In this document: positions 1-58,737 of the stretch, one piece after another
Numbering within the stretch: the stretch's first letter is position 1
Layout: each line of letters begins with the position of its first letter
Origin: a bacterium
GTDB taxonomy: Bacteria; Patescibacteriota; Saccharimonadia; Saccharimonadales; Saccharimonadaceae
Direction: 5' to 3'
NCBI GenBank assembly: GCA_043724245.1
Contig: JAYSMZ010000018.1
Location: forward strand, 626-64,625
DNA: 64,000 nt
Made by a program: the position numbers and the translations under genes
The notes under the pieces: generated by a model
The model's database searches: none
What the model saw: the letters and a program-made list of their open reading frames with translations, nothing else
What the model was told of the DNA's origin: nothing

Positions 1-382
1 CGAAATTGACGATTGCATAGGCCATAATCGCAACAACAAGCCCAACCACTGCATACAAAACCGTATCTTTGGCCGCTGTGACGTTTTTGGCATCACCGCC
101 CGAAATGGTATATCGGATACCTCCGTAAATAATCATTAGGACGCTGACTGCACCGATAATAAATAGAAAAACATTAACAATTGTCGTAAAAATACCAGAC
201 TTACAGGCGGCGGCGCCTGTTTTGCTGTTAGTAAACAGACAGACCTTATCGACACTGTCCCCCCGGGCAACTTTTGCGCCGTCAGTTAAATCTGACGCCG
301 AGGCAAATTGAGTAACACCCAACGCCAGCACTGGGATCATCAAAAGACCTGCTAACAAAATTCTGATTGATTTTATTTTCAT
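1..382 (-). CDS. T4SS pilin-like small membrane protein, paralog 1 (3' end runs off the window)
   Basis: Not in the ORF track because it is open at the window edge. ATG at 382-380. My translation: MKIKSIRILLAGLLMIPVLALGVTQFASASDLTDGAKVARGDSVDKVCLFTNSKTGAAACKSGIFTTIVN...IYGGIRYTISGGDAKNVTAAKDTVLYAVVGLVVAIMAYAIVNF. Signal peptide plus 2 TM helices, with the same C-terminal module as 409-819 and 954-1370. Confidence 0.75.
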   Translation of the reverse strand, partial: MKIKSIRILLAGLLMIPVLALGVTQFASASDLTDGAKVARGDSVDKVCLFTNSKTGAAACKSGIFTTIVNVFLFIIGAVSVLMIIYGGIRYTISGGDAKNVTAAKDTVLYAVVGLVVAIMAYAIVNF

Positions 383-408
383 ATTTTCCCCTTTTATTGT
401 TTTATAGA

Positions 409-819
409 TTATGCACCTGGTGTTAAGCTTGTGATAACAAAGTTGACGATTGCATAGGCCAAGATTGCAACAACAATCCCCACAATCGCATACAATATAG
501 TATTTTTGGCGGCGGTTACGTTTTTAGAATCACCGCCGGAAACTATATAGCGGATACCACCGTAAATCAGCATAAGGACACTGATTGCACCGATAAGGTA
601 AAGGGCGATGTTGGTAATTTTTTGAAAAATACCACCATTGCCAAATAAATCTGATGGTTGGCTTGATCCTTGCGCCGAGCTAGCACCACCAGCAGCTCCA
701 GTAGTAAAGTTTACAGCCGAAACAGTTTGCGACGTTGCTCCAGCTAAACTTAGCCCCAAAACCATTATAGGCACAGCCAAAATACCGGCAAAGATAGTTT
801 TTATTAATTTCATTTTCAT
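409..819 (-). CDS. T4SS pilin-like small membrane protein, paralog 2
   Basis: 136 aa. Signal peptide, short variable Gly/Ser-rich ectodomain, then two TM helices joined by IYGGIRYIVSGGDSKNVTAAKNTILYAIVG. This is TrbC/VirB2-like topology, within a tandem array of paralogs. Confidence 0.8.
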   Translation of the reverse strand: MKMKLIKTIFAGILAVPIMVLGLSLAGATSQTVSAVNFTTGAAGGASSAQGSSQPSDLFGNGGIFQKITNIALYLIGAISVLMLIYGGIRYIVSGGDSKNVTAAKNTILYAIVGIVVAILAYAIVNFVITSLTPGA

Positions 820-953
820 TTATTGCCTCCTTCTCGCTGTTCAAAAATGACCTGAAAGCGATTAATAACCTTGCTCTATTTATAACAGATAATCGCTTAT
901 ATTTAAATATCCGCCCATTAAGAAGGCGGATATTTTCTTTTTATCGGTAATTA

Positions 954-1370
954 TTATTTTGGAATCAATCCGGTAATAACAAAATTAACGATCGCATAAG
1001 CCAGAATTGCCACTATAAGACCTACGATTGCATATAAAATCGTGTCTTTGGCCGCTGTGACGTGTTTAGAATCACCGCCGGAAATCGTATAGCGAATGCC
1101 TCCGTAAATCAACATAATAACGGCAATTGCCCCGATTATGAATAAAAAGATGTTAACAATAGTTTGGAATATTCCACCGCTTCCAAAGAGTGTCGTCGGT
1201 GTATTATTGGTGTCGTCCCGCGTACATTCCACTCCATTTTCAAGTGTTGGATTGTCACAATTTGAATTTGCCGCAAAAGTGCTGGCTGGCATCATCATAC
1301 CAACCCCGACCGCCATTAGGGGCGCTGCCAATAACCCTGCTAGCATGATTTTGATTGATCGTATTTTCAT
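954..1370 (-). CDS. T4SS pilin-like small membrane protein, paralog 3
   Basis: 138 aa. Signal peptide, variable head containing a Cys pair (NCDNPTLENGVEC), and a conserved tail IYGGIRYTISGGDSKHVTAAKDTILYAIVGLIVAILAYAIVNFVIT. Confidence 0.8.
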   Translation of the reverse strand: MKIRSIKIMLAGLLAAPLMAVGVGMMMPASTFAANSNCDNPTLENGVECTRDDTNNTPTTLFGSGGIFQTIVNIFLFIIGAIAVIMLIYGGIRYTISGGDSKHVTAAKDTILYAIVGLIVAILAYAIVNFVITGLIPK

Positions 1371-1483
1371 TTAATTATTCCTTTCGCTATTTAGTATTTG
1401 TTCTTTACAAATTACATAAGCGGATTAGTTGTTAATACCTTTATAGCAGATAACCAATCTTTTGTTAATAGGTGTTTGGTTTA

Positions 1484-1873
1484 TTATGCCCCAAACTGTC
1501 CAATAATATAGTTTACGATTGCATATGCCATAATCGCAACTATCAGACCGACTACGGCGTACAGCAAGGTGTTTTTTGCCTTGGTTACCAGTGTCGCGTC
1601 CCCACCGGAAGTTGTGTAGGTAATGCCAGCTATAATTATGACGATAACTGAAACTGCCGCAAGAATAAACAACAAAGTATTGACTATTATCTTTACATAA
1701 TTTGGAAGTTTGTTTGTTGTTCTACTTTTACACAGGACAGAATTTGCTGCGGCTCCAGTACAGGAGTCCTTTAATGGGTCATAGGGAGCAGCACCGGCGT
1801 GTGCTGGTATCAAGAACAGACCAAAGCTTACGATAAAACCTAGAGTTAATATCAGATATTTAATTTTTTTCAT
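1484..1873 (-). CDS. T4SS pilin-like small membrane protein, paralog 4
   Basis: Same architecture, with head Cys pair (DSCTGAAANSVLC) and tail TYTTSGGDATLVTKAKNTLLYAVVGLIVAIMAYAIVNY. I prefer the internal ATG at 1873 (MKKIKYL..., preceded by a GGGGGA RBS-like run) over the track start at 1891. Confidence 0.75.
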   Translation of the reverse strand: MKKIKYLILTLGFIVSFGLFLIPAHAGAAPYDPLKDSCTGAAANSVLCKSRTTNKLPNYVKIIVNTLLFILAAVSVIVIIIAGITYTTSGGDATLVTKAKNTLLYAVVGLIVAIMAYAIVNYIIGQFGA

Positions 1874-1907
1874 CTTGCCGATGTCCCCCAATAATTTTTA
1901 TATGCCA

Positions 1908-2216
1908 TTAAAACTTTCCTGTCATTTTCCCTATCACAAATTGAGTTATAAAAAATGCCAGGATTACCACTATTAAACCGATAACGGAGTACAAGATGGC
2001 GTTCTTTGCCTTGGCTATTTTTGCCGGGTCGTACGATGCCGATGCAAATGAAAAACCGGAGAGAATAATAATTATTACCGCAACAGCCCCAACTATAAAA
2101 TATATCCCATCTAATACTCCTCCGAGTACGCTAACTGCGCTTGTGTGGGGAATACTGACTTCGGTAGTTTTAATCTTAACCGGATCTACTGCTGCTAATA
2201 TTTCTAATATCATCAT
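1908..2216 (-). CDS. Short divergent pilin-like two-TM protein, paralog 5
   Basis: 102 aa. Two TM helices with a linker ASASYDPAKIAKAKNAILYSVIGLIVVILAF that echoes the ..AAK.TILYA.VG.. module. There is no obvious signal peptide. 4-nt overlap with the upstream gene. Confidence 0.6.
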   Translation of the reverse strand: MMILEILAAVDPVKIKTTEVSIPHTSAVSVLGGVLDGIYFIVGAVAVIIIILSGFSFASASYDPAKIAKAKNAILYSVIGLIVVILAFFITQFVIGKMTGKF

Positions 2217-2653
2217 TTTATTACCTTATCAAATACAAAATTAACTAATGCTATCGCGGAAATCATCAAGACTAACCCCATAACGGCCATTGTCATTATC
2301 GAACGTGCCTTGGCGGCAGTTTCAGGTTTACCTTGGCTGATAATAAACATCCAGCCTCCAAACAAGAACATAAACCCAGACAAATAGGCGGCAACCACGA
2401 TTGCCATTTCAACTATATTAAGCACAATAAGCCAAATAAACCTACTTAACCCCCCGGCGCTGGCCGGACTTTTTATATTGCACTTGTTGTCAGTCAGGCC
2501 TCGGTACCATGACGGAAACCCCAAAAAGCCTTGATTACAACTATCAGAAAGGCCTGCAGCGCTTGTCGTTTGAGGCGTAGTAGTAACAACCATAACCCCG
2601 CCAACAGCCGCAATTATGACGAATGATGTTATCCAGTTACGTAAGCTTTTCAT
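2213..2653 (-). CDS. Divergent pilin-like membrane protein, paralog 6
   Basis: 146 aa. Signal peptide, Cys pair (DSCNQGF...NKC), two TM helices with a loop IISQGKPETAAKARSIMTMAVMGLVL. Overlaps neighbours by 4 nt on both sides. Confidence 0.65.
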   Translation of the reverse strand: MKSLRNWITSFVIIAAVGGVMVVTTTPQTTSAAGLSDSCNQGFLGFPSWYRGLTDNKCNIKSPASAGGLSRFIWLIVLNIVEMAIVVAAYLSGFMFLFGGWMFIISQGKPETAAKARSIMTMAVMGLVLMISAIALVNFVFDKVIK

Positions 2654-3039
2654 GGCGAAAACAGACCTCCTGGAATAATAAAATTCAAAAAGGCAAACAT
2701 GGCAGCGTATACTATTATGCCTAAAATTACATTCGATAAGAATATATTGGCTTTCTTAATCCTGTCAGGGCTGCCACCGGCCGTCATATACATAACAGAT
2801 CCAAACACTACTCCGCCAACAGCCGCAATCCCGACTCCGGCGGTAAGAAAATTTATTGCCATCAGTAACAATCCCCAAATACCAGTGTCCTTGATGTTTG
2901 TTTTAGATTTTCCCTCCGTACAAGATATTATCGAAGTCTTGACGCCACCACACGTCGCGGCAGATGCAACAGGGCCAACAAAAACACCAGTCAGCCCTAT
3001 TATTAACCCAATTAAAAGTATTGTTTGTTTTATTTTCAT
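2650..3039 (-). CDS. Divergent pilin-like membrane protein, paralog 7 (first gene of the array)
   Basis: Signal peptide MKIKQTILLIGL..., Cys pair (ATCGGVKTSIISC), two TM helices with a loop MTAGGSPDRIKKANIFLSNVILGIIV. I prefer the ATG at 3039, which matches the MK.K starts of the paralogs, over the track start at 3078. Confidence 0.65.
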   Translation of the reverse strand: MKIKQTILLIGLIIGLTGVFVGPVASAATCGGVKTSIISCTEGKSKTNIKDTGIWGLLLMAINFLTAGVGIAAVGGVVFGSVMYMTAGGSPDRIKKANIFLSNVILGIIVYAAMFAFLNFIIPGGLFSP

Positions 3040-3188
3040 GCCTATTAATAAAGTACGATAAAAACTAGTATTACGCAAGTGTTTTAGAAAAACGTTATCA
3101 GATTAGTATTGCATTTTTTGCGTTTTTAGTGTATAAATATCTGTAACAACTTGGTTACTAATTATTAGCGTATGAAGGGATATAAACC

Positions 3189-4019
3189 GTGAAAAGTGAA
3201 TCAATAACAGATTGTGGTCATGAACGTAAGAAGTTTTCACCAAAGAAAGCAGTTGCGTCTGTAGCCGCGTTTGCGGTTTTTGCTACAGCTGGTATAGGTT
3301 GCGGCAAAGAGTTAACCAAAAGCCAGCCTCAACCAAAACCGACAAAAACCGAAATTGCTAGCCCAAGTCCCGAAGCAACCCCTGCTAACGTAGATATGTT
3401 TACCAACGCCATGGAAAAATACAAGAGAATGGACGTTGAAACGTTCGATGAATTACCATTTGACGAACGATTGCAGTATTCACAGTACGCAATAGACCTT
3501 ACTGTTTTGTCTGGCGAATATAAAGTTCTCTATGGACAAGCAAAATCCCGCGAATACAAGATAAAACCCGAGCCAGTTTCTATTGACAGCAACGGACAAG
3601 AAATATTAGACGCTAATTTATACAACAGACAATTGGCATATATCAATGTCGGTGACGGTAAAAGCACAGGCGATTGGGCGGTTAATTATGATACCAGAGA
3701 CGGCGAAAAGATTTTTAATAGCGTTTATTATGAGACTAGAAAAGGTAAGATGGTTTCCGTTGATTATCTTGATAACGTAGCAGAGCTAGAAAAAATGGGG
3801 AAAAGCGAACAAGACATGTTCTTAAAAAATAAATGGACCGCAACAGGAACAAGCGATCTTATGTCGGGCAAGGATAGGCAAGGTAATACAATTCAGTATA
3901 AAAACGTCAAATTTCATAATCAAGACGGCAAGGATTTTGAGGGAAAGTTTATTTATAAAACATATGAAAATTATGACGGTAATGAACAAGGGGTCTGGTT
4001 ACTGGATTTTTTCTATTAA
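3189..4019 (+). CDS. Putative lipoprotein, unknown function
   Basis: 276 aa. The N-terminal hydrophobic segment ends in a lipobox-like ATAGIGC. It is followed by a Pro/Thr-rich linker and a soluble domain. Divergent from the pilin array. Confidence 0.55.
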   Translation: MKSESITDCGHERKKFSPKKAVASVAAFAVFATAGIGCGKELTKSQPQPKPTKTEIASPSPEATPANVDMFTNAMEKYKRMDVETFDELPFDERLQYSQYAIDLTVLSGEYKVLYGQAKSREYKIKPEPVSIDSNGQEILDANLYNRQLAYINVGDGKSTGDWAVNYDTRDGEKIFNSVYYETRKGKMVSVDYLDNVAELEKMGKSEQDMFLKNKWTATGTSDLMSGKDRQGNTIQYKNVKFHNQDGKDFEGKFIYKTYENYDGNEQGVWLLDFFY

Positions 4020-4136
4020 AAAATTTGTTTAATAAAATGTATAATCTAAATCGAGAAAAACAACTATTTTTTAAGTTGACATGAAATCTAATACATTCTT
4101 GTATAACCATAGCCCTTGTGGTTAAATGTAGATATC

Positions 4137-7100
4137 ATGTGGCGCAAACACACATTCAAAAAAATTATTCTATTCTCGATGATTACATTGATCACATTTG
4201 GAATGGTCGAGCCTCTATTTATGACTACCGTTCGGGCCTTTGGGTCAGGAGGAGGAAGTACTGGCGGAACCTCTACCCACCTCTCCGACAAATTCACTCC
4301 AGTAGATGGTGCTCGATCATGGCTGTACCTTCGAATGCTATCTTATTGTTTTTCAATTACTCCACTGATTGACGGTGATAAAATATCGGCGGAACACGCA
4401 GAAAAAATAAATTGGTTCAAGGATCCAGGATATCAACCTGTCTATAATAATGGTGTAGCTGGTCCACCTAAACTGGATTTGATTGAAGACAACAGTTTTC
4501 TATCTGAGGCCGGATTCACTAGTGGTGTTAGTTGTTACAAATTTGAAGACACTCCCTCCACCAATAAATCGAGTTGGATACGGAATGCTGTTAAATTGTG
4601 GGGATATGATTCGGCAGCCTCAGCACTTTGTGACTTTGGGTTTGTGCGCGCAAACAGCCCGAATGACAGTGGGAATGATTGTGTGAATGGCAGCGGAGAT
4701 TTTAAGAGCCCAAACGGCACTAGGCTTGATTCTGATAAATTCAGACTAAGCGTTCTGTCAAAGGTTTACGGTGGAAATTTTGGTAATGACCCAACATTAA
4801 CAAAAGCACAAAATTATACATTTAATTGGTATTCATTTAGAGACCGTTGTTTGGGACTTGCAAATAGTATGACGCCATCCAATGCTGGTCCTGCCGAGAG
4901 ACAATATCATGTCAATGTGGTAGATAATTCGACTGGTAGGGTATCTAGAGTGGCATTTGTTGGCATGAAACCAAGAACAGAAACAATTTACAATCTTACG
5001 TCTATACAATCTCCTCAACGAGGCAATCTGAGCGCCCAATGCGGTGCAATGGAAGCAGTAATAAATGCTAATGCCGCTGCTCTTTCGACATGGATCAAGA
5101 ACAATATAAAAAATGGTGGAGGTGGTAATGTAGTTGACCCAACAAGCAATGAGGCTTTGAATCCTAGCGGCGGCACGAATAATAACACAACAGATAACAG
5201 TTGCGGGGCACAGGTATCAGGGATTGGATGGATAATTTGTCCTATTATAAGTGCATTGACGAAATTAGATGACGGGATGTGGTCATTAGTGTCGGGTCTT
5301 TTAAACGTCAGCCCAATCAAACAATCCAACCAAGCCAAAAGTATTTACAGTGCTTGGGGTTCAATCCGAAGTATCGCAAATATTCTTTTTGTAATATTTT
5401 TCCTTGTCATTATATTTTCTCAATTAACAGGCGCCGGTATCACGAATTATGGTGTCAAAAAAATGTTGCCGAAGATAATTATTGCGGCAATCTTGGTTAA
5501 CGTTTCGTTCATTATTATTCAGCTTGCTGTGGATTTGGCTAATATCATAGGCTCGAGTCTTTATAACTTCATCGTTGGTATGGCACCAGCATACACAGTA
5601 GGATGGGGTAGTGCGTTAGACATACTGGTAGGTGTTGCGGGAGCCGGAGCTGCGGCTGTTGGTGTAGTGGCTTTAGCCGGAGGACCGACTGCCTTATTCT
5701 TTATCTTGTTGGGACTTGCCTTAATAAGCGCGCTTGGATTATTAACAGCGGTTCTTACGCTTATATTTCGTCAGGCCGCTATAATTGTCTTGGCTATACT
5801 TGCACCATTAGCCTTCGTAGCCTATCTGCTTCCAAATACCGAAAGTTGGTTTAAAAAATGGAGAGGATTACTGTTGTCAATGTTAATGATGTATCCGATG
5901 GCTGCACTTATTTTTGCTGGCGCACAATTTGCAGCAGCGACAATTATCGGCAATGGCAAAGACTTTTGGAATATAATGATTGGACTGACAATGATGGCCT
6001 TGCCACTATTTTCTTTGCCATTCATAGCCAGACAAGGTGGTTCAATATTATCCAGGGTCAACGGTGCGTTACAAGGCGTGGCTAATCGGGCGAACCAGCC
6101 GATAAGAGACACGGCCAAAAGCTTCTCGGACAGCGCCGCCGCCAGGTTTCGAGCCAACAACGCGGATCAACGTGGCGGAGTATTAGGGGGCTTCCAGCGA
6201 GTTGGTAGAGGCCTTAGCTATCCTTCACGACACCTTAGTAGGGCATGGGAGGGTGCACGACTAAACCGCGAAGCCCAAACCGAAACAGCACAAAGTGAGC
6301 TCAAATCACAACTAGGCCGTAATCAGGTTCGTGGTATGTTCGGCAGAAGAATCAGGGGCCAAGAGACGGACGTAGCAGCAGCCGCAGCCAAGGAGATGCT
6401 GGCCCAAAACGCAACAATGACAAGCACAAGATTGAAAGAACAAAACCCTACAATAAACGCCAGGCATGGTGAAACAATGGGGTTAAATGAGCGTGGATAT
6501 GCGGCAGAAGGGAATAAAAAGGTCGCTGAGGCAAGGGTTAAGGAGGGCTTAATGGAAAATAGAGGATTTGATGAACTCAGACGACAAATTGACCACTCTG
6601 AATCTATCGCGGGCGCCGCGGAAAATCGAGCCGCGGGACGAGTCGAACGAGACCCGACTACATTACAAGTACGAAGAGATGCTTTCGAAGCCGAGGCTGA
6701 CCTTAATACTGATAAAAAGTGGACTGAAACGGGAATTGGAATCGACTCCACGCTAGACGACACAAGAGCAAGATTAGAGGAAGCAACAGTGGCAGCAGAA
6801 GGTGCAACTAGCGACGCGGCAGCCCTCACTGAATTGGACCCTCGCGTCCAGACAATGAAATCCTATGCCGAAGGTGCAAAAATGAGACACGAGGCAGCCC
6901 AAGAAGTAACCAAACAAACGATTGCAGATGACCCAACATTAGATGCCGATAGAGATCGGCTTGAAAATGCAAAGACGATCGCAGATACAGCGACGAAACT
7001 TGCTAGTGACAGAACCGAAGCTAAACCTGAGATATTAAGGGCAAGGGCTGCGAATAAAGCTGCTGAGCGCAAACTGGACACAACTAAAAAGAATGTGCAG

Positions 7101-8267: not shown

Positions 8268-8302
8268 GAGAAAAAATATTAATATCTTTCACGCCGAATT
8301 TT

Positions 8303-8334
8303 TTATACTATAAGCTGTATGGCGGTATATAAAG
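8303..8334 (+). repeat. Direct repeat copy 1 (32 bp; duplicate of the 5' end of the prgI-like gene)
   Basis: ttatactataagcTgtatggcggtatataaag, versus 9087-9118 ttatactataagcAgtatggcggtatataaag. That is 31/32 identical. Confidence 0.9.
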
Positions 8335-8382
8335 GTATACAAAATGGTAGATGTTAGTCAGTAGATAGTAATTAGCGAATGT

Positions 8383-8718
8383 TTATTTATTCAACCGACT
8401 AGCAACAGCAAACTGCATAAAATATCGCTCCAAGTTTTGGTCTTGACCCGATTTACCAGCATCACTTAATATGGCCGTTAGATACACTTCTTTAGCTCGT
8501 AATACTTCTTTGGATTTGGGGGATTTATTGGCAATTAACGTTGATATGGTCGCATCAAACAAATCAATCGCACGCCTTACGGCCTGCAAACAACCCTCAT
8601 TGTCATCGCGGCGCTTAGCACTAAAAGACCTGCCGACCTCGCTTGAAATATTGCCCATTTGGTTAAAAATATTCATTTTCGACCAGCGCTCCTGGTCAAC
8701 TGCGTATGACTCATTCAT
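8383..8718 (-). CDS. Hypothetical helical protein (cassette gene 2)
   Basis: 111-aa ORF with a 4-nt overlap with the upstream gene. I recognise no motif. Confidence 0.5.
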   Translation of the reverse strand: MNESYAVDQERWSKMNIFNQMGNISSEVGRSFSAKRRDDNEGCLQAVRRAIDLFDATISTLIANKSPKSKEVLRAKEVYLTAILSDAGKSGQDQNLERYFMQFAVASRLNK

Positions 8719-9056
8719 TGTTTGACTTTCTCGGCAACCAGCAATGTTATTTGTTTTCGAAGATTTTCATCATCAACGCCACGAGACATATTTTGTTGCC
8801 TTGGCCGGATATTTATCATCGAGTCAAATTCAATAAATTCGTCCGTACCAAACTTTGCAGGATATAGGTTGATACCCCATAAATCATCTTGTTTCGAGCC
8901 ACTTTCTAACAATTTTTGCTCGGCATCTACGTGCATTTCTACATCTACAACCATAGCCTTTTTCTCAAGGTCAACAACAGCCTTCACTAGATTGCCGTAC
9001 ATCTTTTGCGCCATTTCGTTCAATTCAACGGCTGTTATCATATCAATCTGTTTCAT
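8715..9056 (-). CDS. Small conserved hypothetical protein, DUF5674-like (cassette gene 1)
   Basis: 113 aa. The pattern ...GNLVKAVVDLEKKAMVVDVEMHVDAEQKLLESGSKQDDLWGINLYP...FDSMINIRP... matches my recollection of the DUF5674 family. The function is unknown. Confidence 0.5.
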   Translation of the reverse strand: MKQIDMITAVELNEMAQKMYGNLVKAVVDLEKKAMVVDVEMHVDAEQKLLESGSKQDDLWGINLYPAKFGTDEFIEFDSMINIRPRQQNMSRGVDDENLRKQITLLVAEKVKQ

Positions 9057-9086
9057 ATAGATAGTATACCAGAGCGGAAAGGTGAG

Positions 9087-9118
9087 TTATACTATAAGCA
9101 GTATGGCGGTATATAAAG
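9087..9118 (+). repeat. Direct repeat copy 2 (contains the -10-like TATACT and start codon of the prgI-like gene)
   Basis: See the 8303-8334 entry. Confidence 0.9.
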
Positions 9119-10077
9119 TCCCCCAAGATGTTGAAGCTGACGATAAATTAATCGGACCGTTTAGTTTTCGCCAGTTTATTTATCTGGTTATTGTCGCTTT
9201 GGCAATTATGATGGCGTGGGGATTGGCGCAGTTATTTGTCCCTCTTTTAGTTCTGCCGTTGCCAATCATCATATTTTTCGGTGCACTTGCCTTGCCACTG
9301 CGCAAAGACCAACCAATGGAAATATACATGGCGGCAATGGTGTCGTTTTTCCTGAAACCACACCGACGTTTATGGGACCCGGATGGTATTGATTCATTAA
9401 TTGAAATTACCGTACCAAAAATTATCGAATACAGCCGAACTAAAGATTTATCTATGTCCGAAGCCGAACGCCGTTTTAGTTATTTGGCTGAAATAGTCGA
9501 CAGCCAAGGGTGGGCTATCCGTGGACCCGGAGTCCAAGCACCAAATAGTGCTATGACAAGCGACGCATATTTTGAAGCTCAGTCTGTCGAGGACATATTG
9601 GATAACAACGCAACAACTTCGCTTTCACTATCTGATAAATTAAAACAAAGTGAAGCCCGCCTGCGCCAAGAGGCGGTCGACATTATGCATAAAAAAGTGT
9701 TCGCGCCCAAACCACAGCCTGTTGCTACAGCCCAGCCAAAGCAACTGGCTCAGCCTCAGCCTGTTCAACCAATGCCAAGTCCTGCCAGTTATTTTGGAGG
9801 CACACCACTTGTCGAACCGGCTATTGCCGCTGAGCCAACAGTCGCTACGCCGATCAACTATAACCCATACCCAGATATCAGACAGTCGGTCATCGAACCA
9901 ATCGGGCAACAAAAACCAGCGGCCAAACCAAAAACAACCACTAGCGCAAAGGTGGTACCAGCTGGTATAATAAACCTCGCTAGTAATACCGATCTAACAA
10001 TCGCGGCTATTGCTCGTGAAGCTGATAGAATTCAGAAAAAACAAGACGCACAAGAGGTAATAGTTAAACTTCGATAG
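9103..10077 (+). CDS. PrgI/VirB3-like T4SS membrane protein with Pro/Gln-rich C-terminal extension
   Basis: The N-terminus MAVYKVPQDVEADDKLIGPFSFRQFIYLVIVALAIMMAW is followed by a second TM helix. This matches the PrgI-family (VirB3-like) signature of Gram-positive T4SS. ATG 9103 is preferred over GTG 9082. Confidence 0.65.
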   Translation: MAVYKVPQDVEADDKLIGPFSFRQFIYLVIVALAIMMAWGLAQLFVPLLVLPLPIIIFFGALALPLRKDQPMEIYMAAMVSFFLKPHRRLWDPDGIDSLIEITVPKIIEYSRTKDLSMSEAERRFSYLAEIVDSQGWAIRGPGVQAPNSAMTSDAYFEAQSVEDILDNNATTSLSLSDKLKQSEARLRQEAVDIMHKKVFAPKPQPVATAQPKQLAQPQPVQPMPSPASYFGGTPLVEPAIAAEPTVATPINYNPYPDIRQSVIEPIGQQKPAAKPKTTTSAKVVPAGIINLASNTDLTIAAIAREADRIQKKQDAQEVIVKLR

Positions 10078-10108
10078 CAAATACTAAGGGGAGTGGGAAC
10101 GAACAAAC

Positions 10109-10939
10109 ATGCCGCCAAACAATCAAACGCCAGTACAACCGCCTGCCGCTCCGCCTGCAGGTAATTCTGCTATCCAGGGCTCTGGTACCAATGCTCCTGC
10201 ACCACAAAAGCCAAAAAACCCTAATTCTACCCAAAACACCCTGTTATTATCAGAGATCCGCGACAATATGGTCATCATGACTGATGGTTCGTTCCGCGCT
10301 GTTGTTGCCTGCAAATCAATAAACTTCGATTTGATGAGCAGTACCGAACGCGAAGGCGTCGAATACAGTTACCAAAATTTCCTGAATGCCCTAAACCATC
10401 CAGTTCAAATACTTATCCGTTCACAACGTATTGATATTGGCCCGTACATTGAACGTCTAGTCGAAATACGTCGCAACCAGGATAATATGCTGCTAAACGT
10501 TTTGATGGATGATTACATCGACTATATCGATATGCTGTCCCAAGAAGCGAATATTATGGACAAATCATTTTTTATCGCAATTCCATACTATGCGCAGGGC
10601 GATGTTAACAACCTGGTTGAACAAGGCAAGGGATTCTTTGGCAAGTTATTTGGCGGAAATAAAAATATTATTACTAAAATTGACACTATCACTTACGAAA
10701 AAGCCAAAACTGAAATAAAAAACAGAGTTGACGGTGTTATGGCCGGGTTGTTCCAATTGGGAATACAAAGCGTCCAATTAAACACCAAAGAACTTGGCGA
10801 ACTGTATTATAACTTTTATAACCCAGACACAGCAGTACGCGAACCACTAGGAGATTTTGACAACGTAACATCGATTTATACCAAAAAAGCAACTGCTGAT
10901 ACACCAGTCGAACAAGCAGGAACAGAGGTAACAGAATGA
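10109..10939 (+). CDS. T4SS protein resembling a detached VirB4 N-terminal domain
   Basis: 276 aa. A disordered Pro-rich N-terminus precedes IRDNMVIMTDGSFRAVVACKSINFDLMSSTEREGVEYSYQNFLNALNHPVQILIRSQRIDIGPYIERL. That pattern is like the CagE/TrbE/VirB4 N-terminal region. The stop overlaps the VirB4 start as ATGA. Confidence 0.5.
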   Translation: MPPNNQTPVQPPAAPPAGNSAIQGSGTNAPAPQKPKNPNSTQNTLLLSEIRDNMVIMTDGSFRAVVACKSINFDLMSSTEREGVEYSYQNFLNALNHPVQILIRSQRIDIGPYIERLVEIRRNQDNMLLNVLMDDYIDYIDMLSQEANIMDKSFFIAIPYYAQGDVNNLVEQGKGFFGKLFGGNKNIITKIDTITYEKAKTEIKNRVDGVMAGLFQLGIQSVQLNTKELGELYYNFYNPDTAVREPLGDFDNVTSIYTKKATADTPVEQAGTEVTE

Positions 10940-12837: not shown

Positions 12838-12856
12838 AGGATAATGCAAGGGAATT

Positions 12857-15800
12857 ATGGCTGAACCCGCACGAAAATTTGATCCTGATATTGAACATGA
12901 TATTACACCCCCTTTTCTAAAGGGTCTCGAGGGCGGTGGCGATACCAATTCAAGACGAGGAAACCTAGAGGCTGTTAAGAATTCAGAATCCAAACCAGGA
13001 AAACTAGGTACTGGTTCTGTCGCGGAACGCGAGGCAAAAGGCTCAAATGTTATCAAGGGACCGTGGAAAAGTAGTGTTACCGGCAATAAACCTGGCTCAT
13101 CTAAATTCGGCGGTCTTTATGCTGCAATTAAAAAAAAGAGTCCAGTCGCAGTAATTATCGCACTTATATTTGGTGGAGGAGCAACAATTTTCATGGGGAG
13201 CGGCATTCTTGCGCCAATTTCCTTTATTACAAATGTCGCTGACGACCTTAACGACCAACTTGCCTCTCTTGACATTCGCAATGAACACATGGGGAGAAAC
13301 AAGATACCAAGCGTAGAAAGAGACAAGGCAATAGCAGGTTGTAGAACACTATCTATTAGATGTAAGTTCCGTACTATGTCAAAAACTCAGGTAAAAAAAT
13401 TTGAAAAAGCCGGAATAAAAGTAATTGGCGAAAAAGGTGGAATATTTGGCAATAGAATAAAACCGACTGAATATGTGTTTGAAAATAAGTCATATGGACC
13501 AAAAGAGTTTGCTAAAGAGATTAATATAAAAAGCGGAAACAGTAGGATACGTTATGCATTAAGGCGTGGAATTAATATGAAGTATATCGGTTTTAGCGAT
13601 AAATCATTTATTAACATACTAGATAAATTTGGTATATCAAGAAAACCTCCAGAACTCAGAGGTACCAAAGAAGATCGGGTAAAAGCCCTTATGGATAGAA
13701 CTGGTGCGAATAGTATTGATGATCTTAAGTTTAAGCCTGTGGACAAAGAAGGTAATGCTGTCCCCGATGGGGAAGAGCCACATCATTATTTACTAGAGGG
13801 AGACACAGGCCCAAATCCAAGACAATATAGCAAAAAACAGGTGGGTACCATGAAAAAGGCTATCTCTGGGGTGCAGTCTGCTGTGAGGCCAACAAAACTA
13901 ACAGGCGCTGCCTTAAAGGGTTTGTCGGTTTTAGGGGCAGTAGACCTAGCTTGTTCAATAAAAAATACGATTGGGATGGCAGCTATTGCCCAAAAAGTTG
14001 CAAATTCAGTCCAACTTGCAAAATACGCAATGCCTGTTATGAGTCTTGCTGGTCAAATGAAAGCTGGCGATATATCAACAGCTGATTCCGAAGTACTAGG
14101 CGAGTTTTTTATGAATCCAGACAATCGAAAAACGATTTCAGAAATAGCGGGCTCATCAGCGAGCGATGCGTCGGTAAAGGACGTCGCCAACCCGAATTAT
14201 GGCAAGAACGCTATGGATTCAGATTTGTATAGTATGTCGACAACAGGAGAGGTTGCATCAAACCCAGTAAACACTACGTATTCTTTGGGTATGGGGGTAA
14301 GCCGATTATTATCGGGTGTAGCCTTTTCTGCAGCAATAATGGACACAATTCTTAACGTTGGCTCGGATAATGATATGACCTGTAGATTTGCGCAAAATTG
14401 GTTTGTGCGCGGAGCCGGAGTGGTAGTTGCAGCTGTCGGGGTAGTTACTAGTGGCGGTACCTCTTTAGTACCACAGGCTGCATTGTTTGGTGGTATGATG
14501 GCAGCATTTTTAGCAGTTAACTATGCTCTAAAATCTGCGTTAAGTGGGTCATTATTTGAAGGAGGTATGCAGGATTCGCCAGTTGAAAGAGGAGCAGCTA
14601 CTTGGACGGGTATGGCCGTAATAGAGGGAGAAACGGCAAAAAACCGAGGTATGATGCCTGGAAACAGCAAACAGATTGTCGCCTACAACCAATTACAGAA
14701 CAGCTCGAAACTAGATTATATTGCAATGGAGTCCCAGGACGTCAACCCTCTTGATGTTTCGAGTCAATATTCATTCCTTGGGTCATTCGTAAGATCAATT
14801 AGTGGCCACTTTAGTTCTTCGGCAAACTCATCTTCGTTAAGCGGTATATTGTCGTTAATTTCTAGTAGTATGTCGTCAGCCGTAAATCCTCAAGCAACGT
14901 ATGCAAAAAATATTGATTCTTCAAGGTTCACAAAATGTGACGATGATATATATAAAGACGCTGGTATTGACGCTGACGTACAATGTAATATTCGATACGT
15001 AATGCCGACTGAAGATTTGGCGCTTGACACTGACGAAGTGGCACGTTATATGGAAGATAACGGTTATGTAGAAAAAGACACTACAACAGGACTACCGGCA
15101 GGATACACCGAACCAGTCCCAAGTGAAACTCAAAACTTTGCAATGAATTTATTAAATGGAGCAGTTGATAGTTTTTACAATGACAGAAACTACGGAGACA
15201 CAACCGCGGGCAAAGAGTATGGTCAGTTCCTTGACTACTGCGCCTACCGTTCAATGCCATTTGGTCAAACATATGAAGAATCAGGAGCGTTTAACGCAGC
15301 AGATCCGAGTTGGGTTGACGGAAGTAACTGCATGAAACAAGGAGCTCCTTATAGTTATTTCCGCATATATACATTTGATAAAACCGTAAACGCGGCTATT
15401 GATGATGAATATGCCGAAGATGTCACTTCGCAGGATTCTACCGACCCTGTGGGTTCAAGTCCGAACGTTGGAAATATCGATATAGATTATACGGATAACG
15501 GAGCAAATATACCGTGTGCCGCCGGTACAACAAATACAAATCCTGCAATCCAACAAGGGTATTACGAAGACCCTAGTGGCCGCATTTCGTTAAGCTATGG
15601 TAGGTCTCGTTACCGTGTCACCACCGTAAAAGTCCGAACCTGCAATGTTGGTTCAGGCAAACCGGTAAACTCACAAATATCCGCATCGGCTAAACAGATG
15701 CTAAAAGACAATGACAGACTGAGTATATACTCTGGGTTCAGAGACATGGCGTTGCAAACACAACTATGGTTCGATAACGGCCAGGACCAAAGGTACGTGG

Positions 15801-15976
15801 CCAGGCCTGGTACTTCTAATCATCAAATGGGCATAGCGATGGATTTGGCATGCGACGGCATAAAGATAGGTGGTCATTCAAACCAATGTTTTGTGTGGTT
15901 AAAGAATAATGCTTCCAAATATGGCTTCAAGAATTATGATCCCGAACCGTGGCACTGGTCGGTGAATGGTAGTTGA
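12857..15976 (+). CDS. Large T4SS-associated membrane protein with C-terminal VanY/M15-type peptidoglycan peptidase domain
   Basis: 1039 aa. TM helix near aa 95-125 and further hydrophobic segments mid-protein. The C-terminus SGFRDMALQTQLW...ARPGTSNHQMGIAMDL...YDPEPWHW carries the SxHxxGxAxD and ExWH motifs of the zinc D-Ala-D-Ala carboxypeptidase (M15B/VanY) family. Confidence 0.75.
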   Translation: MAEPARKFDPDIEHDITPPFLKGLEGGGDTNSRRGNLEAVKNSESKPGKLGTGSVAEREAKGSNVIKGPWKSSVTGNKPGSSKFGGLYAAIKKKSPVAVIIALIFGGGATIFMGSGILAPISFITNVADDLNDQLASLDIRNEHMGRNKIPSVERDKAIAGCRTLSIRCKFRTMSKTQVKKFEKAGIKVIGEKGGIFGNRIKPTEYVFENKSYGPKEFAKEINIKSGNSRIRYALRRGINMKYIGFSDKSFINILDKFGISRKPPELRGTKEDRVKALMDRTGANSIDDLKFKPVDKEGNAVPDGEEPHHYLLEGDTGPNPRQYSKKQVGTMKKAISGVQSAVRPTKLTGAALKGLSVLGAVDLACSIKNTIGMAAIAQKVANSVQLAKYAMPVMSLAGQMKAGDISTADSEVLGEFFMNPDNRKTISEIAGSSASDASVKDVANPNYGKNAMDSDLYSMSTTGEVASNPVNTTYSLGMGVSRLLSGVAFSAAIMDTILNVGSDNDMTCRFAQNWFVRGAGVVVAAVGVVTSGGTSLVPQAALFGGMMAAFLAVNYALKSALSGSLFEGGMQDSPVERGAATWTGMAVIEGETAKNRGMMPGNSKQIVAYNQLQNSSKLDYIAMESQDVNPLDVSSQYSFLGSFVRSISGHFSSSANSSSLSGILSLISSSMSSAVNPQATYAKNIDSSRFTKCDDDIYKDAGIDADVQCNIRYVMPTEDLALDTDEVARYMEDNGYVEKDTTTGLPAGYTEPVPSETQNFAMNLLNGAVDSFYNDRNYGDTTAGKEYGQFLDYCAYRSMPFGQTYEESGAFNAADPSWVDGSNCMKQGAPYSYFRIYTFDKTVNAAIDDEYAEDVTSQDSTDPVGSSPNVGNIDIDYTDNGANIPCAAGTTNTNPAIQQGYYEDPSGRISLSYGRSRYRVTTVKVRTCNVGSGKPVNSQISASAKQMLKDNDRLSIYSGFRDMALQTQLWFDNGQDQRYVARPGTSNHQMGIAMDLACDGIKIGGHSNQCFVWLKNNASKYGFKNYDPEPWHWSVNGS

Positions 15977-15977
15977 T

Positions 15978-16478
15978 ATGAATAAGAAGATTATTATCAT
16001 CATATCTGCGATAATCATCATTGTTTCAGTCTGTGCTGTTTTTTATATTTTTCAACAAAATTCAAAAAAATCTGTTGAATCAGACTCGGGGAATGTCAGT
16101 ATCAAAATTGCTAAGGGCGCCGAAAAAGATACGAAAATCATACAACCTGCCGTTGAGGCCTATTTGTCCCAAAATGTCTCTGAAACTATTGCGTCAAGAA
16201 GCAAACGATTATCTGCTTACTTTACGTCTGACAGCCCGGTTCTAAGCCGTGACATTGAAATTCGTTCAATAAACTCAGCAGTCAAAACAAAAGGGAGTTT
16301 GACATCGGTATCGTTTATTGCGGGTGAAAGTCAATTACCAACCCTAATTGTTAAAGCAGATGTAACAAGTTATGCTGGGTCAAATAGTAATACTGTTTCA
16401 CAAACTTATTGGGTATCCATGAAGAATAATTCCATGAAAGTTCTTAAGGCCTATGATATAGGGTTGATGGATCAATAA
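15978..16478 (+). CDS. Small N-terminally membrane-anchored protein (VirB8-like scaffold or immunity candidate)
   Basis: A single TM (IIIIISAIIIIVSVCAVFYIF) plus a ~130-aa beta-rich ectodomain. ATG 15978 sits directly after the upstream stop. Confidence 0.45.
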   Translation: MNKKIIIIISAIIIIVSVCAVFYIFQQNSKKSVESDSGNVSIKIAKGAEKDTKIIQPAVEAYLSQNVSETIASRSKRLSAYFTSDSPVLSRDIEIRSINSAVKTKGSLTSVSFIAGESQLPTLIVKADVTSYAGSNSNTVSQTYWVSMKNNSMKVLKAYDIGLMDQ

Positions 16479-16479
16479 T

Positions 16480-19400: not shown

Positions 19401-19647
19401 AGTATCTTCTCAGGCAAGATATATGGAATCACATCCTGAAAAATATACCAAAATTCCAAACCCTCAATCAACCAGGGATTTAGAGCCGGGTGATATACTG
19501 GTTAAAAAGGACGAGAGTCATATTATGATTTATGTTGGCGACAAGCCTGGTGGTGATATAAGGAATGGCTCGTTGGGCAAATACGCACCGGCAGCTGCCA
19601 GCACGGGATGGTATATGGGTGATATAAAGGCTTACAGGTTAAAATGA
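16480..19647 (+). CDS. Four-module secreted cell-wall hydrolase (SGNH esterase + lysozyme-like transglycosylase + Amidase_3-like + NlpC/P60-like)
   Basis: 1055 aa with a signal/TM. SGNH blocks are LIGDSISVG, VGLGTNT and DGIHP. SLT-like motif: ALAYTESGGSYTVVNSSGFEGRYQIG. Amidase_3-like motifs: ILISPGHTGQTD ... NNVDLAFEIHTD. C-terminal Cys/His papain-like module: SPCNQFVGTVM ... GDILVKKDESHIMIYVG. Confidence 0.8.
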   Translation: MKMLTKNNFKKTNIYLCLLIMVLSTLLLPLKVLAVDLDFFSANDILFYMPCEVPTSSDNSSAGAASNGTIVLIGDSISVGLQNVGIAKKLKDNGYTDVTIDAAGSRSMLSPGDSTTNGLQAVDANKDKISSAGTIVVGLGTNTEPEFESNLKKMVKKIRNINNNIRIFWTNVGVTNTGAKASMDEYNKIIDRNKSALDYTVIDWHKEVIDNPSLIPIPDGIHPGANGYNKLAALVTKSVGKAGAISSSGGAPMDGTGNIPYDLPATSGKTGLESAIDENGKFIHSSEKVTFSSLAKKGQAYRDYYITMRWNYVSWNWDGTTADADNEQYAWMARTPRMVLVTNERTGKSIYAAALEAGPAPWAGAASGTSGASRNGWHNPQRGTPSEYTGRVSGFPPKAFSALGARQGMSSGSGDVLKYQWAPNQNATPGPTTDKVGSSNTQAVSSNPNCGCASSSSPSASTNGKFDKYLKALAYTESGGSYTVVNSSGFEGRYQIGPNYFNSYADNYPPGKQLGPHAATMPGDVQDAMVYLHLYEQYLKVDKDTLRLAAGWIWPAAADSPNDPAMDIVLPGNNGGLTPRKYAQIVLGNMKKSAAQKLELKYLDAPEFEKYYKKLDGNKNTPYGAFPGGGSSASTAGSSTGNGNANNAVSGASTGTKPKILISPGHTGQTDTKMMGNPAIIDHISPNPTEMQNVWDVAVIVKRKLEAKGYEVLMTKNSANGGIFSWDRAQMANDNNVDLAFEIHTDTGATYNHDWKVGEVWSQWKDGYREAGRNGNGQKVKLVASDAVMAKSQEYAKKVATARQEAGQTGVKGVVGTGKFGTRPAKPFDSSYPTPAGNIPLVMLWSKVPWIYNEVGGASGGLTDQQIQVYAEGLVNGVVESVPPGSGGSTSSECGNTSGDGDATAIVETAIKYSWDSLGAVHGCTPQDAYKEPWKKLYSGYSGACGNPDYSPCNQFVGTVMRSSAADNKFEPNVVSSQARYMESHPEKYTKIPNPQSTRDLEPGDILVKKDESHIMIYVGDKPGGDIRNGSLGKYAPAAASTGWYMGDIKAYRLK

Positions 19648-20012
19648 TTATTAATAAAAAGATTTATATCATAGCAATCGCAGCTGTTGCTGTTATATCC
19701 TTGTTCGCAATATTTATATTCTCACAAAAACCAGTTGATACAAATGTTGACAACGGAGAATCTAGCCTAAAATTTAACCAGGACAGCCAATCTGCCATCG
19801 CTGCCTATCCCATTATTGCTAACTTACCAAAGGATATGTCGCCCGTATTTAGAATTGATTACGGTGTTTCCCTTAAATATCCAAAATATTCGAAAAAAAT
19901 CGCACTGTATATCAGCTCTGACAGACCAGACAATAAATTGTCTGCAATAGAATACATTTATAAAATGGGGTATGACCCTTCTGAATACGAAATAATATTT
20001 AAGGGATTATAA
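19644..20012 (+). CDS. Small membrane-anchored protein, unknown function
   Basis: 122 aa with an N-terminal TM. ATGA overlap with the hydrolase gene. Confidence 0.45.
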   Translation: MIINKKIYIIAIAAVAVISLFAIFIFSQKPVDTNVDNGESSLKFNQDSQSAIAAYPIIANLPKDMSPVFRIDYGVSLKYPKYSKKIALYISSDRPDNKLSAIEYIYKMGYDPSEYEIIFKGL

Positions 20013-20016
20013 AACC

Positions 20017-20736
20017 ATGCAACCTATAATTGATTACTTCACAAAGATACCGAGGAAAAAATTAGTTGTTAGATTATTAGTCACATTTTTTGTTTTGGTT
20101 GCAATTATTTTTTCTGTTTCACTTGTCTGGAATAATTACAATAGTCAAAAAATTGTAACACTCAACCCATCGCCTGGTACAACTATTGCAATAGGCGAAC
20201 AATCCGGTGACGAACCCACAATAACAAAACAAATTGCTAGCACAAATACACTTAAAAAAGTAACTTTACCGGTTGGTAATTATGCTGTGAAATTTACGGG
20301 TTCGTCGGATTATCAAGACAAATATATCTCAATTTTTATTGATAAACCAACCGAGATAAAAACTCCTAACTTAATGTACACAAATGAAAAGCTAAACAAA
20401 TTATTAATTTCTGAAAAGCCAGCTATCCAAAGCGTCATCAAGCCAGTTTTACCGAACCAGGGTTACCAAATTGATCATGAAGCGCCGATGGAGAACGGTA
20501 ATTGGTATGGGGCAAGATTAATCCCTGGCGGGTGGTATGCGTCACCACTTTCATCAAATATTTTGCCTGGTTTAATTAACGAGGATAACACCGAAGATAT
20601 GTTGCTGGTTATTTTGAAAAAAGAGAATGGTGGATGGAAACTGATGGCAGGACCATCGATAATATTTTGGATTGACAACTACCCCAATATCCCTCAAGAT
20701 ATCATACGAGCAACAAATAAACTCGGTTTTTATTAA
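20017..20736 (+). CDS. Membrane-anchored protein, unknown function (last gene of T4SS operon)
   Basis: 239 aa with an N-terminal TM (LVVRLLVTFFVLVAIIFSVSLVW) and a soluble ectodomain. Confidence 0.45.
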   Translation: MQPIIDYFTKIPRKKLVVRLLVTFFVLVAIIFSVSLVWNNYNSQKIVTLNPSPGTTIAIGEQSGDEPTITKQIASTNTLKKVTLPVGNYAVKFTGSSDYQDKYISIFIDKPTEIKTPNLMYTNEKLNKLLISEKPAIQSVIKPVLPNQGYQIDHEAPMENGNWYGARLIPGGWYASPLSSNILPGLINEDNTEDMLLVILKKENGGWKLMAGPSIIFWIDNYPNIPQDIIRATNKLGFY

Positions 20737-29162: not shown

Positions 29163-29166
29163 TTAT

Positions 29167-58438: not shown

Positions 58439-58489
58439 TTGATAATATTACAGGGTAATAGGAAATACGGAAAAACATAAACGAAATGA

Positions 58490-58518: not shown

Positions 58519-58527
58519 AGTATGAGC

Positions 58528-58731: not shown

Positions 58732-58737
58732 CAGATT

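Follow-up and report, generated by a model that had tools for sequence, protein, structure and literature searches.

What is a set of conjugation-like genes doing directly beside dnaA on a bacterial chromosome, when neither a relaxase nor a coupling protein is recognisable among them? This question is raised by the first 20,736 nucleotides of a 64,000-nucleotide stretch (hereafter the window) of a Saccharimonadaceae genome (assembly GCA_043724245.1, contig JAYSMZ010000018.1, positions 626 to 64,625 of the forward strand). The original prediction, which was made from the sequence alone, had read this block as a minimal type IV secretion system (T4SS)-like apparatus that serves host interaction rather than conjugation. 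Our analysis indicates that positions 1-20736 almost certainly represent the vertically inherited, origin-adjacent Patescibacteria-type T4SS of a Saccharimonadia (TM7) bacterium, orthologous to SEML1_0004-0019 of Southlakia epibionticum ML1. The block is a vertically inherited core locus and not a mobile element. For this identity taken together with the mechanism proposed below, we have moderate confidence that it is the best overall explanation of the locus.

The system bears on how ultrasmall epibionts, which make up a large share of the uncultured bacteria, live off their hosts. The prediction implied that it was new, but the pilin array, the lack of a relaxase and of a type IV coupling protein (T4CP) in the cluster and the proximity to dnaA have all been published (PMC7427843, PMC10633639, PMC12102498, PMC12857230). 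The present window is one further orthologue and opens no new question beyond the existing S. epibionticum model. That picture is left unchanged by the small additions made here, namely a TrsD-like protein and a VirB4 that would act together as a split VirB4, a VirB8-like candidate in a subset of lineages, positional orthology of the pilins with the nearest relative, a gradient of conservation across the locus and a lineage-specific insertion in the operon.

Gene content of the locus and its position beside dnaA

The ORF listing and the family scans gave 19 open reading frames (ORFs) for the block, whereas 17 proteins had been predicted; two of the 19 lie in a minus-strand insertion at 8383-9056. 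Seven minus-strand pilin genes diverge from the plus-strand apparatus genes (Table 1), and the 4-nt ATGA overlaps described earlier were found at five gene junctions. The predicted parts list (pilins, a VirB6/TrbL-like protein, a PrgI/VirB3-like protein, VirB4 and wall hydrolases) held as far as it went, but it overlooked the TrsD-like gene, the VirB8-like candidate and the DUF5674 insertion.

The VirB4 protein has 574 relatives in species-representative genomes, and the best 80 of these (L001-L080, hereafter the related loci) were compared with all window proteins by tblastn. In these best 80 the VirB4 proteins are 79-93% identical to that of the window, and nearly all of the sequences are titled as Saccharibacteria or Saccharimonadales metagenome-assembled genomes, in agreement with the guess that the DNA came from an epibiont of the candidate phyla radiation. 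Gene order was conserved across the 80 related loci. Moreover, 55 loci had a downstream flank of 9 kb or more, and in 54 of them dnaN, dnaA and recF lay 5.3-8.8 kb downstream of VirB4 on the opposite strand. The distribution of the system is therefore not patchy.

The median identities calculated for the 52 loci with all markers present were 82.5% for VirB4, 78.5% for DnaA, 70.8% for DnaN, 70% for the TrsD-like protein and 52% for PrgI. For the exposed parts they were 38-45% (pilins), 36% over only 28% of the length (VirB6-like protein) and about 26% (VanY protein). A clear gradient, conserved inside and variable outside, thus runs across the locus. The conservation of VirB4 fits an essential, housekeeping-like role, with the reservation that its identity relative to DnaA is inflated because the loci had been picked by VirB4 similarity. 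Among the 52 genomes VirB4 was more conserved than DnaA in 45 and more conserved than DnaN in 50.

On its right side the block closes with the last gene at 20736, directly followed by the recF stop at 20737, which confirms the predicted zero-nt gap. The dnaA gene itself occupies 23185-24555, and rpmH, rnpA, yidC and a gene for a Jag-like KH/R3H protein follow beyond it. The spacer between dnaA and rpmH is the likely oriC neighbourhood, and its local cluster of DnaA-box-like 9-mers is suggestive; over the whole window such 9-mers were not enriched (20 found, 20.5 expected). Cumulative GC skew showed no clear turning point at dnaA, so that the origin adjacency rests on gene content and not on skew. 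On the left, about 280 bases beyond position 1 can be read from a public 1.6-kb contig (L081). They comprise the end of the seventh pilin gene, a hairpin that carries a T-run and, in convergent orientation, a gene whose C-terminus is of the Hsp20 type (L081 1540-1659); the left boundary of the block lies only about 300 nt outside the window. In relatives (L003, L005, L014, L017 and others) the genes beyond the pilin array are hsp20 and a gene for a ComF-type phosphoribosyltransferase (comFC, which we take to be KEGG K02242). The DNA upstream of position 1 thus offered an hsp20-like gene, followed in relatives by comFC, and no relaxase, T4CP or integrase gene. As a side observation, this competence-associated gene adjoins the T4SS throughout the class, and the ML1 copy is non-essential.

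All ORFs of at least 90 aa in the 64-kb window were compared with Pfam, and no family match to a relaxase, to a VirD4/TraG/TcpA-type coupling protein or to an integrase was obtained, as had been predicted for the relaxase, the coupling ATPase and the integrase. The window contains no tRNA genes, and nothing in it reached the Rfam gathering thresholds. The GC content of the block is similar to that of the surrounding genes, the tail of the VirB6-like protein excepted.

Table 1. Features of the T4SS block and of the adjoining dnaA region (positions are those of the window; aa, amino acids).
Feature	Positions	Strand	Evidence or remark
Pilin 0, VirB2-like	1..382	-	Cut by window start, 133 aa in full on contig L081; PF18895 E 1.6e-9, 38.1 bits (cutoff 26.6)
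Pilin 1, VirB2-like, 136 aa	409..819	-	PF18895 E 5.1e-12
Pilin 2, VirB2-like, 138 aa	954..1370	-	PF18895 E 3.2e-12
Pilin 3, VirB2-like	1484..1891	-	PF18895 E 3.4e-8; TrbC/VirB2 PF04956 E 7.5e-6, slightly below cutoff
Pilin 4, VirB2-like, 102 aa, short N-terminus	1908..2216	-	PF18895 E 7.4e-12; ATGA overlap with next gene
Pilin 5, divergent, 146 aa	2213..2653	-	PF18895 26.1 bits (cutoff 26.6)
Pilin 6, divergent	2650..3078	-	No PF18895 match; pilin architecture; positional orthologues in 39 related loci
Divergent intergenic region, 110 bp	3079..3188		Between pilin array and plus-strand genes
Lipoprotein-like protein, 276 aa	3189..4019	+	Cys in AGIGC after N-terminal hydrophobic stretch
Extended VirB6/TrbL-like polytopic membrane protein, 1383 aa	4116..8267	+	Homologues and fold match
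Inserted two-gene module: 111-aa protein without family, 113-aa DUF5674 protein	8383..9056	-	DUF5674 PF18924 E 1.3e-29; ATGA overlap within module
PrgI/VirB3-like membrane protein	9082..10077	+	PF12666 E 5e-11
TrsD-like protein, 276 aa, putative detached VirB4 N-terminal domain	10109..10939	+	NCBIfam VirB4_plasma, TrsD; ATGA overlap with virB4
VirB4-family ATPase, 633 aa	10936..12837	+	Walker A GAGKSFT; NF045971, PDB 4ag5, PF19044
Membrane protein, 1039 aa, C-terminal VanY/LdcB-type (LAS) peptidoglycan carboxypeptidase domain	12857..15976	+	PF02557 E 5.8e-15
Bitopic protein, 170 aa, candidate VirB8-like (NTF2-fold)	15966..16478	+	AlphaFold2 fold match
Secreted multidomain wall hydrolase, 1055 aa	16480..19647	+	PF13472 and PF01520 over cutoffs
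Bitopic protein, 122 aa	19644..20012	+	No family match
Bitopic exported protein, 239 aa, last gene of block	20017..20736	+	No credible family match
recF, dnaN, dnaA	20737..24555	-	Pfam; convergent with T4SS operon, 0-nt gap
dnaA-rpmH intergenic region and rpmH (24811-24948)	24556..24948		Three DnaA-box-like 9-mers at 24613, 24666 and 24698

The presence of a VirB4 ATPase with the Walker A motif noted earlier was confirmed by family and PDB matches. The protein scored 367.5 bits against the CD1110-type family NF045971 (cutoff 325; model positions 171-734 of 752) and matched PDB 4ag5 at E 6.3e-49 and P-loop_TraG at E 1e-28. The first 170-280 or so positions of full-length VirB4 models are missing from it. 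The TrsD-like protein encoded immediately upstream, a gene arrangement found in 78 of 79 related loci, matched VirB4_plasma at positions 99-279 of 894 (E 3e-6) and TrsD NF041427 (E 1.7e-5). Since the VirB4 gene product covers positions 280-892 of the same VirB4_plasma model, VirB4 appears to be encoded in two pieces, as an N-domain gene and an ATPase gene. BLASTP revealed no similarity between the TrsD-like protein and the VirB4 of the window, as expected of complementary pieces that are not duplicates, and against PDB sequences the TrsD-like protein gave chance-level matches only. The proposed split agrees with a published remark on remote homology between TrsD and the N-terminus of VirB4 (PMC12102498). 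The predicted PrgI/VirB3-like protein was likewise recovered by its family match (Table 1), and it is present in 73 of the 80 related loci.

The 1383-aa product of the gene at 4116-8267 has a Cys-containing N-terminal domain, a helical core of about seven helices (residues ~350-700) and a hydrophilic tail of about 680 aa that is rich in Ala, Thr and Glu. For its predicted VirB6/TrbL character the evidence is indirect: Pfam and NCBIfam scans of the protein itself were empty even at E up to 1, but homologues and a weak fold match pointed to this family. There are 1427 homologues, many with precomputed PF19590/PF04610 domains, and the two that were re-scanned (P0050 and P0054, E ~1e-70) passed the TrbL cutoff (28 bits, cutoff 25.9). 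In addition, the AlphaFold2 model of the core (pLDDT 78) had R388 TrwI/VirB6 as all five of its best PDB matches, at probabilities of 0.84-0.98, E 0.04-0.26 and TM 0.28-0.42. The assignment is therefore based on homologues that pass the TrbL cutoff, on TrbL-type domains in homologues and on this fold match, and not on a direct family match. The family profile found only low-complexity or coiled-coil matches to the tail among PDB sequences, and a phmmer search found none. The core could be aligned in all homologues, the N-terminal domain in about half and the tail in 3-30% of them. Among 120 homologues the tail was barely alignable, although most carry one of some length. It is rich in Ala, Thr, Glu and Arg and comes after an Arg-rich segment behind the last membrane helix; its coding part (5900-8267) has a GC content of 0.48-0.51, compared with about 0.41-0.43 in the rest of the gene and about 0.40 in the window.

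All seven predicted pilin genes were found where they had been placed. Five of the products passed the Pfam cutoff for PF18895 (T4SS_pilin), one was 0.5 bit short of it and one had no match; the latter two were assigned by the near-cutoff score and by architecture, respectively. In the common layout, an N-terminus resembling a signal peptide (that of the fifth gene is short) precedes a variable stretch, in many cases with a Cys pair, and two hydrophobic helices with a short connecting loop. Pairwise identities among the seven are 17-56%, those of pilin 1 to pilins 0 and 2 being 47-56%. The paralogues are positionally orthologous between this genome and its nearest relative, and pilin 5 is 51% identical to its positional orthologue in L001. 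The true start of pilin 3 is probably the ATG at 1873 and that of pilin 6 probably lies at 3039, which gives proteins of 129 aa in both cases. Judged from the gene layout, the divergent intergenic region at 3079-3188 is presumed to be a bidirectional promoter region; promoter and terminator scans gave no signal above shuffled sequences. An older proposal that the small array encodes secreted substrates similar to pertussis toxin (Ptx-like) was rejected because the proteins match the T4SS pilin family.

Downstream of virB4, the predicted wall hydrolases were recognised by VanY/LdcB, GDSL and Amidase_3 domains. The 1039-aa VanY protein has LdcB/VanY NCBIfam matches and resembles D-Ala-D-Ala carboxypeptidases in the PDB (E ~1e-6). 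It was found in 63 of the 80 related loci at about 25% identity, and Pfam scans of sub-regions gave no match in its N-terminal 930 residues. The 1055-aa hydrolase combines an SGNH/GDSL esterase domain with an Amidase_3 domain, shows sub-threshold similarity to PF06737 and PF01464 (SLT/Rpf-like transglycosylase) and matches the hydrolase PDB 4h08 at E 2e-4; tblastn matches to its gene occurred in 13 of the 80 related loci, and sub-region Pfam scans of its C-terminal domain found nothing. Between the two lies the gene for a 170-aa protein, which we consider a candidate VirB8-like component on the strength of its model. The AlphaFold2 model, for which an alignment of six sequences was used and one of five models was good (pLDDT 79.9), contains a membrane helix and an NTF2-like domain. 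Its best PDB fold matches (E 5e-3 to 1e-1, probability up to 1.0) were CagV/VirB8, TraH and TraM of pIP501, OrfG of ICESt3, TcpC, DotI and Brucella VirB8, and unrelated NTF2 enzymes were also among the matches. An iterated hidden Markov model (HMM) search detected ORFs resembling it in 19 of the related loci; most of them lie 2.8-4.7 kb after VirB4 and a few as far as 6.4 kb. The virB4-recF segment varies between 5.3 and 8.8 kb in the related loci and is longest in this window (about 9.0 kb to dnaN).

Relation to known type IV secretion systems

A conserved T4SS region of Saccharibacteria with VirB4, VirB6 and an array of small proteins with Sec signals was described by McLean et al. in 2020. 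Subsequently, Wang et al. (2023) showed by transposon sequencing (Tn-seq) that the "apparent T4SS (SEML1_0006-0019)" of S. epibionticum is essential, and they pointed out its resemblance to Gram-positive conjugative systems, its series of essential pilins and the fact that no coupling or relaxase protein could be recognised (PMC10633639). The inference of a role in host interaction and not in conjugation agrees with this essentiality and with the published reasoning. The Tn-seq call was "ES" for SEML1_0004-0011 and 0013-0019, and essentiality for epibiotic growth is known only for these S. epibionticum orthologues (PMC10633639).

In ML1 the order is dnaA, dnaN, recF, genes for two small proteins (one with a PEGA domain), a lysozyme-like hydrolase gene, a 3.3-kb gene, VirB4 (K12063), an 882-bp gene, PrgI, a 3.0-kb "T4SS protein" gene, an 837-bp NTF2-like gene (non-essential), a 3.3-kb TrbL/VirB6-like gene, six PF18895 pilin genes, Hsp20 (SEML1_0020) and a gene assigned K02242 (SEML1_0021) (PMC10633639). 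A comparison of the gene tables, as opposed to a sequence alignment, showed that SEML1_0004-0019 have the same gene order as the window in mirror image. However, ML1 has six pilins and the window seven, the window has a single large VirB6-like protein in place of the two large membrane proteins of ML1 (0011 and 0013), and SEML1_0006 carries lysozyme-like domains where the window hydrolase has SGNH and Amidase_3 domains. The 170-aa VirB8-like candidate after the VanY protein and the DUF5674 two-gene insertion are extra in the window.

The phylum survey of Quinonero-Coronel et al. (2025) defined a distinct VirB4 clade allied to MPF_FATA, in which the genes for TrsD, PrgI and VirB6 lie close to virB4, the pilin arrays comprise 2-11 genes (mean identity about 25%), relaxases are almost absent and dnaA/dnaN are nearby (PMC12102498). 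The window shares with the Patescibacteria-clade T4SS the MPF_FATA-related VirB4, the adjacent TrsD, PrgI/VirB3, VirB6, the VirB2 array, the lack of a relaxase and the dnaA/dnaN proximity. VirB8 was rarely detected by HMM in that survey and had no structural homologue in ML1 (PMC12102498), whereas the window has a candidate that is VirB8-like at the level of the fold; the ML1 table lists an NTF2-like match for SEML1_0012 (PMC10633639).

The conjugative T4SSs of monoderms (MPF_FATA: pCF10 Prg/Pcf, pIP501 Tra, pGO1 Trs and the C. difficile CTn-type CD1110) have the VirB4 type and PrgI in common with the window. Further likenesses are a TrsD-like protein as in pGO1, a VirB6-like protein, the VirB8-like NTF2 candidate and large wall hydrolases in the role of VirB1. 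In contrast to these systems, the cluster is without a coupling protein, a relaxase or oriT-associated genes, it is chromosomal, fixed by the origin and vertically inherited, and it possesses a VirB2-like pilin array, which Gram-positive systems lack. MPF_FATA systems use surface adhesins, and no PrgB-like adhesin was recognised in the window.

Outside the monoderms, the Ptl system of Bordetella pertussis, the VirB system of Brucella and the ComB system of Helicobacter pylori resemble the window in having a VirB2/3/4/6/8-type apparatus and no VirD4 in the locus, and they provide precedents for two-step protein export (Sec, then T4SS) and for DNA uptake. However, they are diderm systems with a VirB7/9/10 outer-membrane core, whereas the window locus is without this core and without genes for toxins or known substrates. 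Extended VirB6 proteins, for example those of the Rickettsiales (PMC12857230), combine a polytopic core with large hydrophilic extra domains, as the protein of the window does. Its tail, which is Ala/Thr/Glu-rich, higher in GC and barely alignable even among Saccharimonadia, is likened to the Rickettsiales extensions by architecture and not by sequence. A 2025 FEMS review described the Saccharibacterial system as the first T4SS that is essential for its bearer and as possibly pilus-forming in a monoderm (PMC12857230).

Proposed function and competing explanations

What would such a machine do? Tentatively, and with somewhat less than even confidence, we propose that it is a pilus or conduit at the host interface, driven by VirB4 and independent of a coupling protein. 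In Agrobacterium, VirD4 is dispensable for pilus biogenesis, whereas VirB4, which dislocates pilin from the membrane, is required. In the Agrobacterium VirB/VirD4 model, VirB2, VirB3, VirB4, VirB6, a VirB8-like protein and a wall hydrolase suffice for pilus biogenesis but not for substrate recruitment. We favour a coupling-protein-independent machine because the cluster corresponds to this pilus-biogenesis subset.

According to this proposal, the TrsD-like N-domain and the ATPase body would together form VirB4, which PrgI/VirB3 would dock at the membrane beside the VirB6-like platform and the VirB8-like protein. The seven VirB2-like pilins would be exported by Sec, extracted from the membrane by VirB4 and polymerised on VirB6, and the product would be a pilus or conduit across the cell's own monoderm wall. 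The downstream hydrolases (VanY/LdcB carboxypeptidase, amidase, SGNH esterase and possibly a transglycosylase) may open peptidoglycan locally, in the cell's own wall and perhaps also in that of the host. Because the cluster has the pilus-building T4SS subset and is without a coupling protein and a relaxase, the output would most likely be the surface filament or conduit as such, plus proteins that pass the host contact site independently of a coupling protein; DNA transfer led by a relaxase is unlikely. What we infer of this mechanism is the assembly of a pilus, the hydrolase targets and the substrates.

Several points weigh against this proposal. A pilus has yet to be observed, and VirB2 is normally missing from Gram-positive T4SSs. 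Six sequences underlie the VirB8-like model, whose NTF2 fold is a common one, the fold match of the VirB6-like protein is weak (E 0.04, TM 0.33-0.42), the TrsD and VirB4 N-domain matches fall under the curated cutoffs, and the comparison of VirB4 with DnaA carries the selection bias described above. The scan for coupling proteins covered 64 kb, and a T4CP may be encoded elsewhere; S. epibionticum has a distal, non-essential homologue (PMC12102498). Finally, a 2024 perspective calls the role of the T4SS "completely unknown" and names effector delivery and uptake.

A bolder form of the same idea seems to us rather unlikely to be right in full. The system would be a pilus-only T4SS in a monoderm, in which VirB4 builds a filament of positionally conserved but functionally distinct pilin paralogues, and the locus would act both as a determinant of host range and as a feeding conduit. 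The fast-evolving outer parts (the pilins, the VirB6 ectodomain and tail, the set of hydrolases and the lineage-limited VirB8-like protein) would then set which host wall is breached. Elements of this idea have already been speculated upon in the literature, and what is added here is the gradient of conservation and the VirB8-like candidate.

The T4SS could alternatively translocate effectors, that is, inject cytoplasmic proteins into the host bacterium after their recruitment either by a distally encoded VirD4-like protein or by the extended VirB6 tail, which is probably cytoplasmic. This is a common speculation in the field, and it gains from the observations that T4CP genes often lie far from virB4 and that many Patescibacteria genomes have VirD4 homologues (PMC12102498), as well as from the Arg-rich, fast-evolving tail of about 680 aa behind the last membrane helix of the VirB6-like protein. 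However, no T4CP family match was obtained in the 64 kb, nothing in the locus or next to it was recognisable as a candidate effector gene, and the distal T4CP homologue of S. epibionticum is non-essential whereas its T4SS genes are essential (PMC12102498). We regard effector translocation as unlikely.

Uptake appears less probable still. On this explanation the apparatus would import DNA, nucleotides or other host material in the manner of H. pylori ComB and feed a cell that is unable to make its own nucleotides. ComB-type systems are not known to have a T4CP or a relaxase, which counts in favour of uptake, as do the position of comFC beside the pilin genes, both in relatives and in S. epibionticum, and a weak similarity of VirB4 to the archaeal DNA importers CedB and CedD. 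Uptake was also proposed in the 2024 perspective. However, the similarity to CedB and CedD is that of a generic P-loop and lies far under the cutoff, and the comFC neighbour SEML1_0021 is non-essential (PMC10633639). Moreover, deletion of comEC in S. epibionticum abolishes competence but not viability (PMC12857230), which implies that ComEC-dependent DNA import cannot explain the essentiality of the T4SS; import by a route without ComEC is not affected by this result.

An integrated conjugative element or its decayed remnant, with the relaxase, coupling protein and integrase just outside the window, is highly improbable: VirB4 does belong to the CD1110-type family found on monoderm conjugative elements and the left end of the locus does coincide with the window edge, but past that edge lies a convergent hsp20-like gene (hsp20 and comFC in relatives), the chromosomal position is the same in 54 of 55 species-level genomes, as the earlier rejection of such an element would have it, VirB4 is no less conserved than DnaA across the related loci (selected by VirB4 similarity), the window has neither an integrase family match nor a tRNA gene, and the GC content of the block departs from that of its surroundings only in the VirB6 tail.

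Inserted and neighbouring genes

The module at 8383-9056, situated between the VirB6-like gene and prgI, was absent from all 80 related loci and therefore represents a lineage-specific insertion that splits the operon. It is probably not part of the T4SS in spite of its location inside the block. PADLOC gave no match for the DUF5674 pair, and the start of the module and the start of prgI are only 25 bp apart.

Three further genes of the block are narrowly distributed. The lipoprotein-like gene at 3189-4019, whose product had no Pfam, NCBIfam or PADLOC match, was detectable in 3 of the 80 related loci; in size and neighbourhood it is akin to the non-essential NTF2-like SEML1_0012 and is a candidate equivalent of it. 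The 122-aa bitopic protein was found in 3 and the 239-aa protein in 12 of the 80 related loci, and sub-region Pfam scans of both were empty. The 239-aa protein occupies the position of the essential SEML1_0004/0005, to which it is a candidate equivalent.

Outside the T4SS block, Pfam identified housekeeping genes of the origin region, a surface-polysaccharide cluster, a ParE toxin, an NYN protein and a Bro-N/Fic pair. The Bro-N protein and the adjacent Fic/DOC protein (57593-59340, plus strand) matched the PADLOC candidate defence families PDC-S13 (E 1.5e-133) and PDC-S04 (E 3e-70). The ParE-family toxin gene (29095-29415, plus strand) is preceded by a gap of 291 bp, which probably holds a small antitoxin gene.

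The surface-polysaccharide region extends over about 27000-57500 and 61282-63944. It encodes many GT1, GT2 and GT4 glycosyltransferases, a GDP-mannose dehydratase and an epimerase, a Wzm/Wzt-type ABC exporter, three FkbM methyltransferases, a DegT aminotransferase and a sugar transferase. From 48 to 56 kb the GC content falls to 0.34-0.36, which suggests a variable or acquired segment. A gene of the "23S rRNA intervening sequence protein" family (62433-62798, minus strand; four-helix bundle, PF05635 E 2e-33) lies amid the glycosyltransferase genes. In addition, a secreted protein of 679 aa (43820-45859, minus strand), for which Pfam gave only an Ig-like domain (N_BRCA1_IG), carries three "(Q)xDGNLVxY" repeats in its C-terminus; judged by eye, these are similar to the repeats of bulb-type mannose-binding lectins, and the protein may be a candidate lectin of this type.

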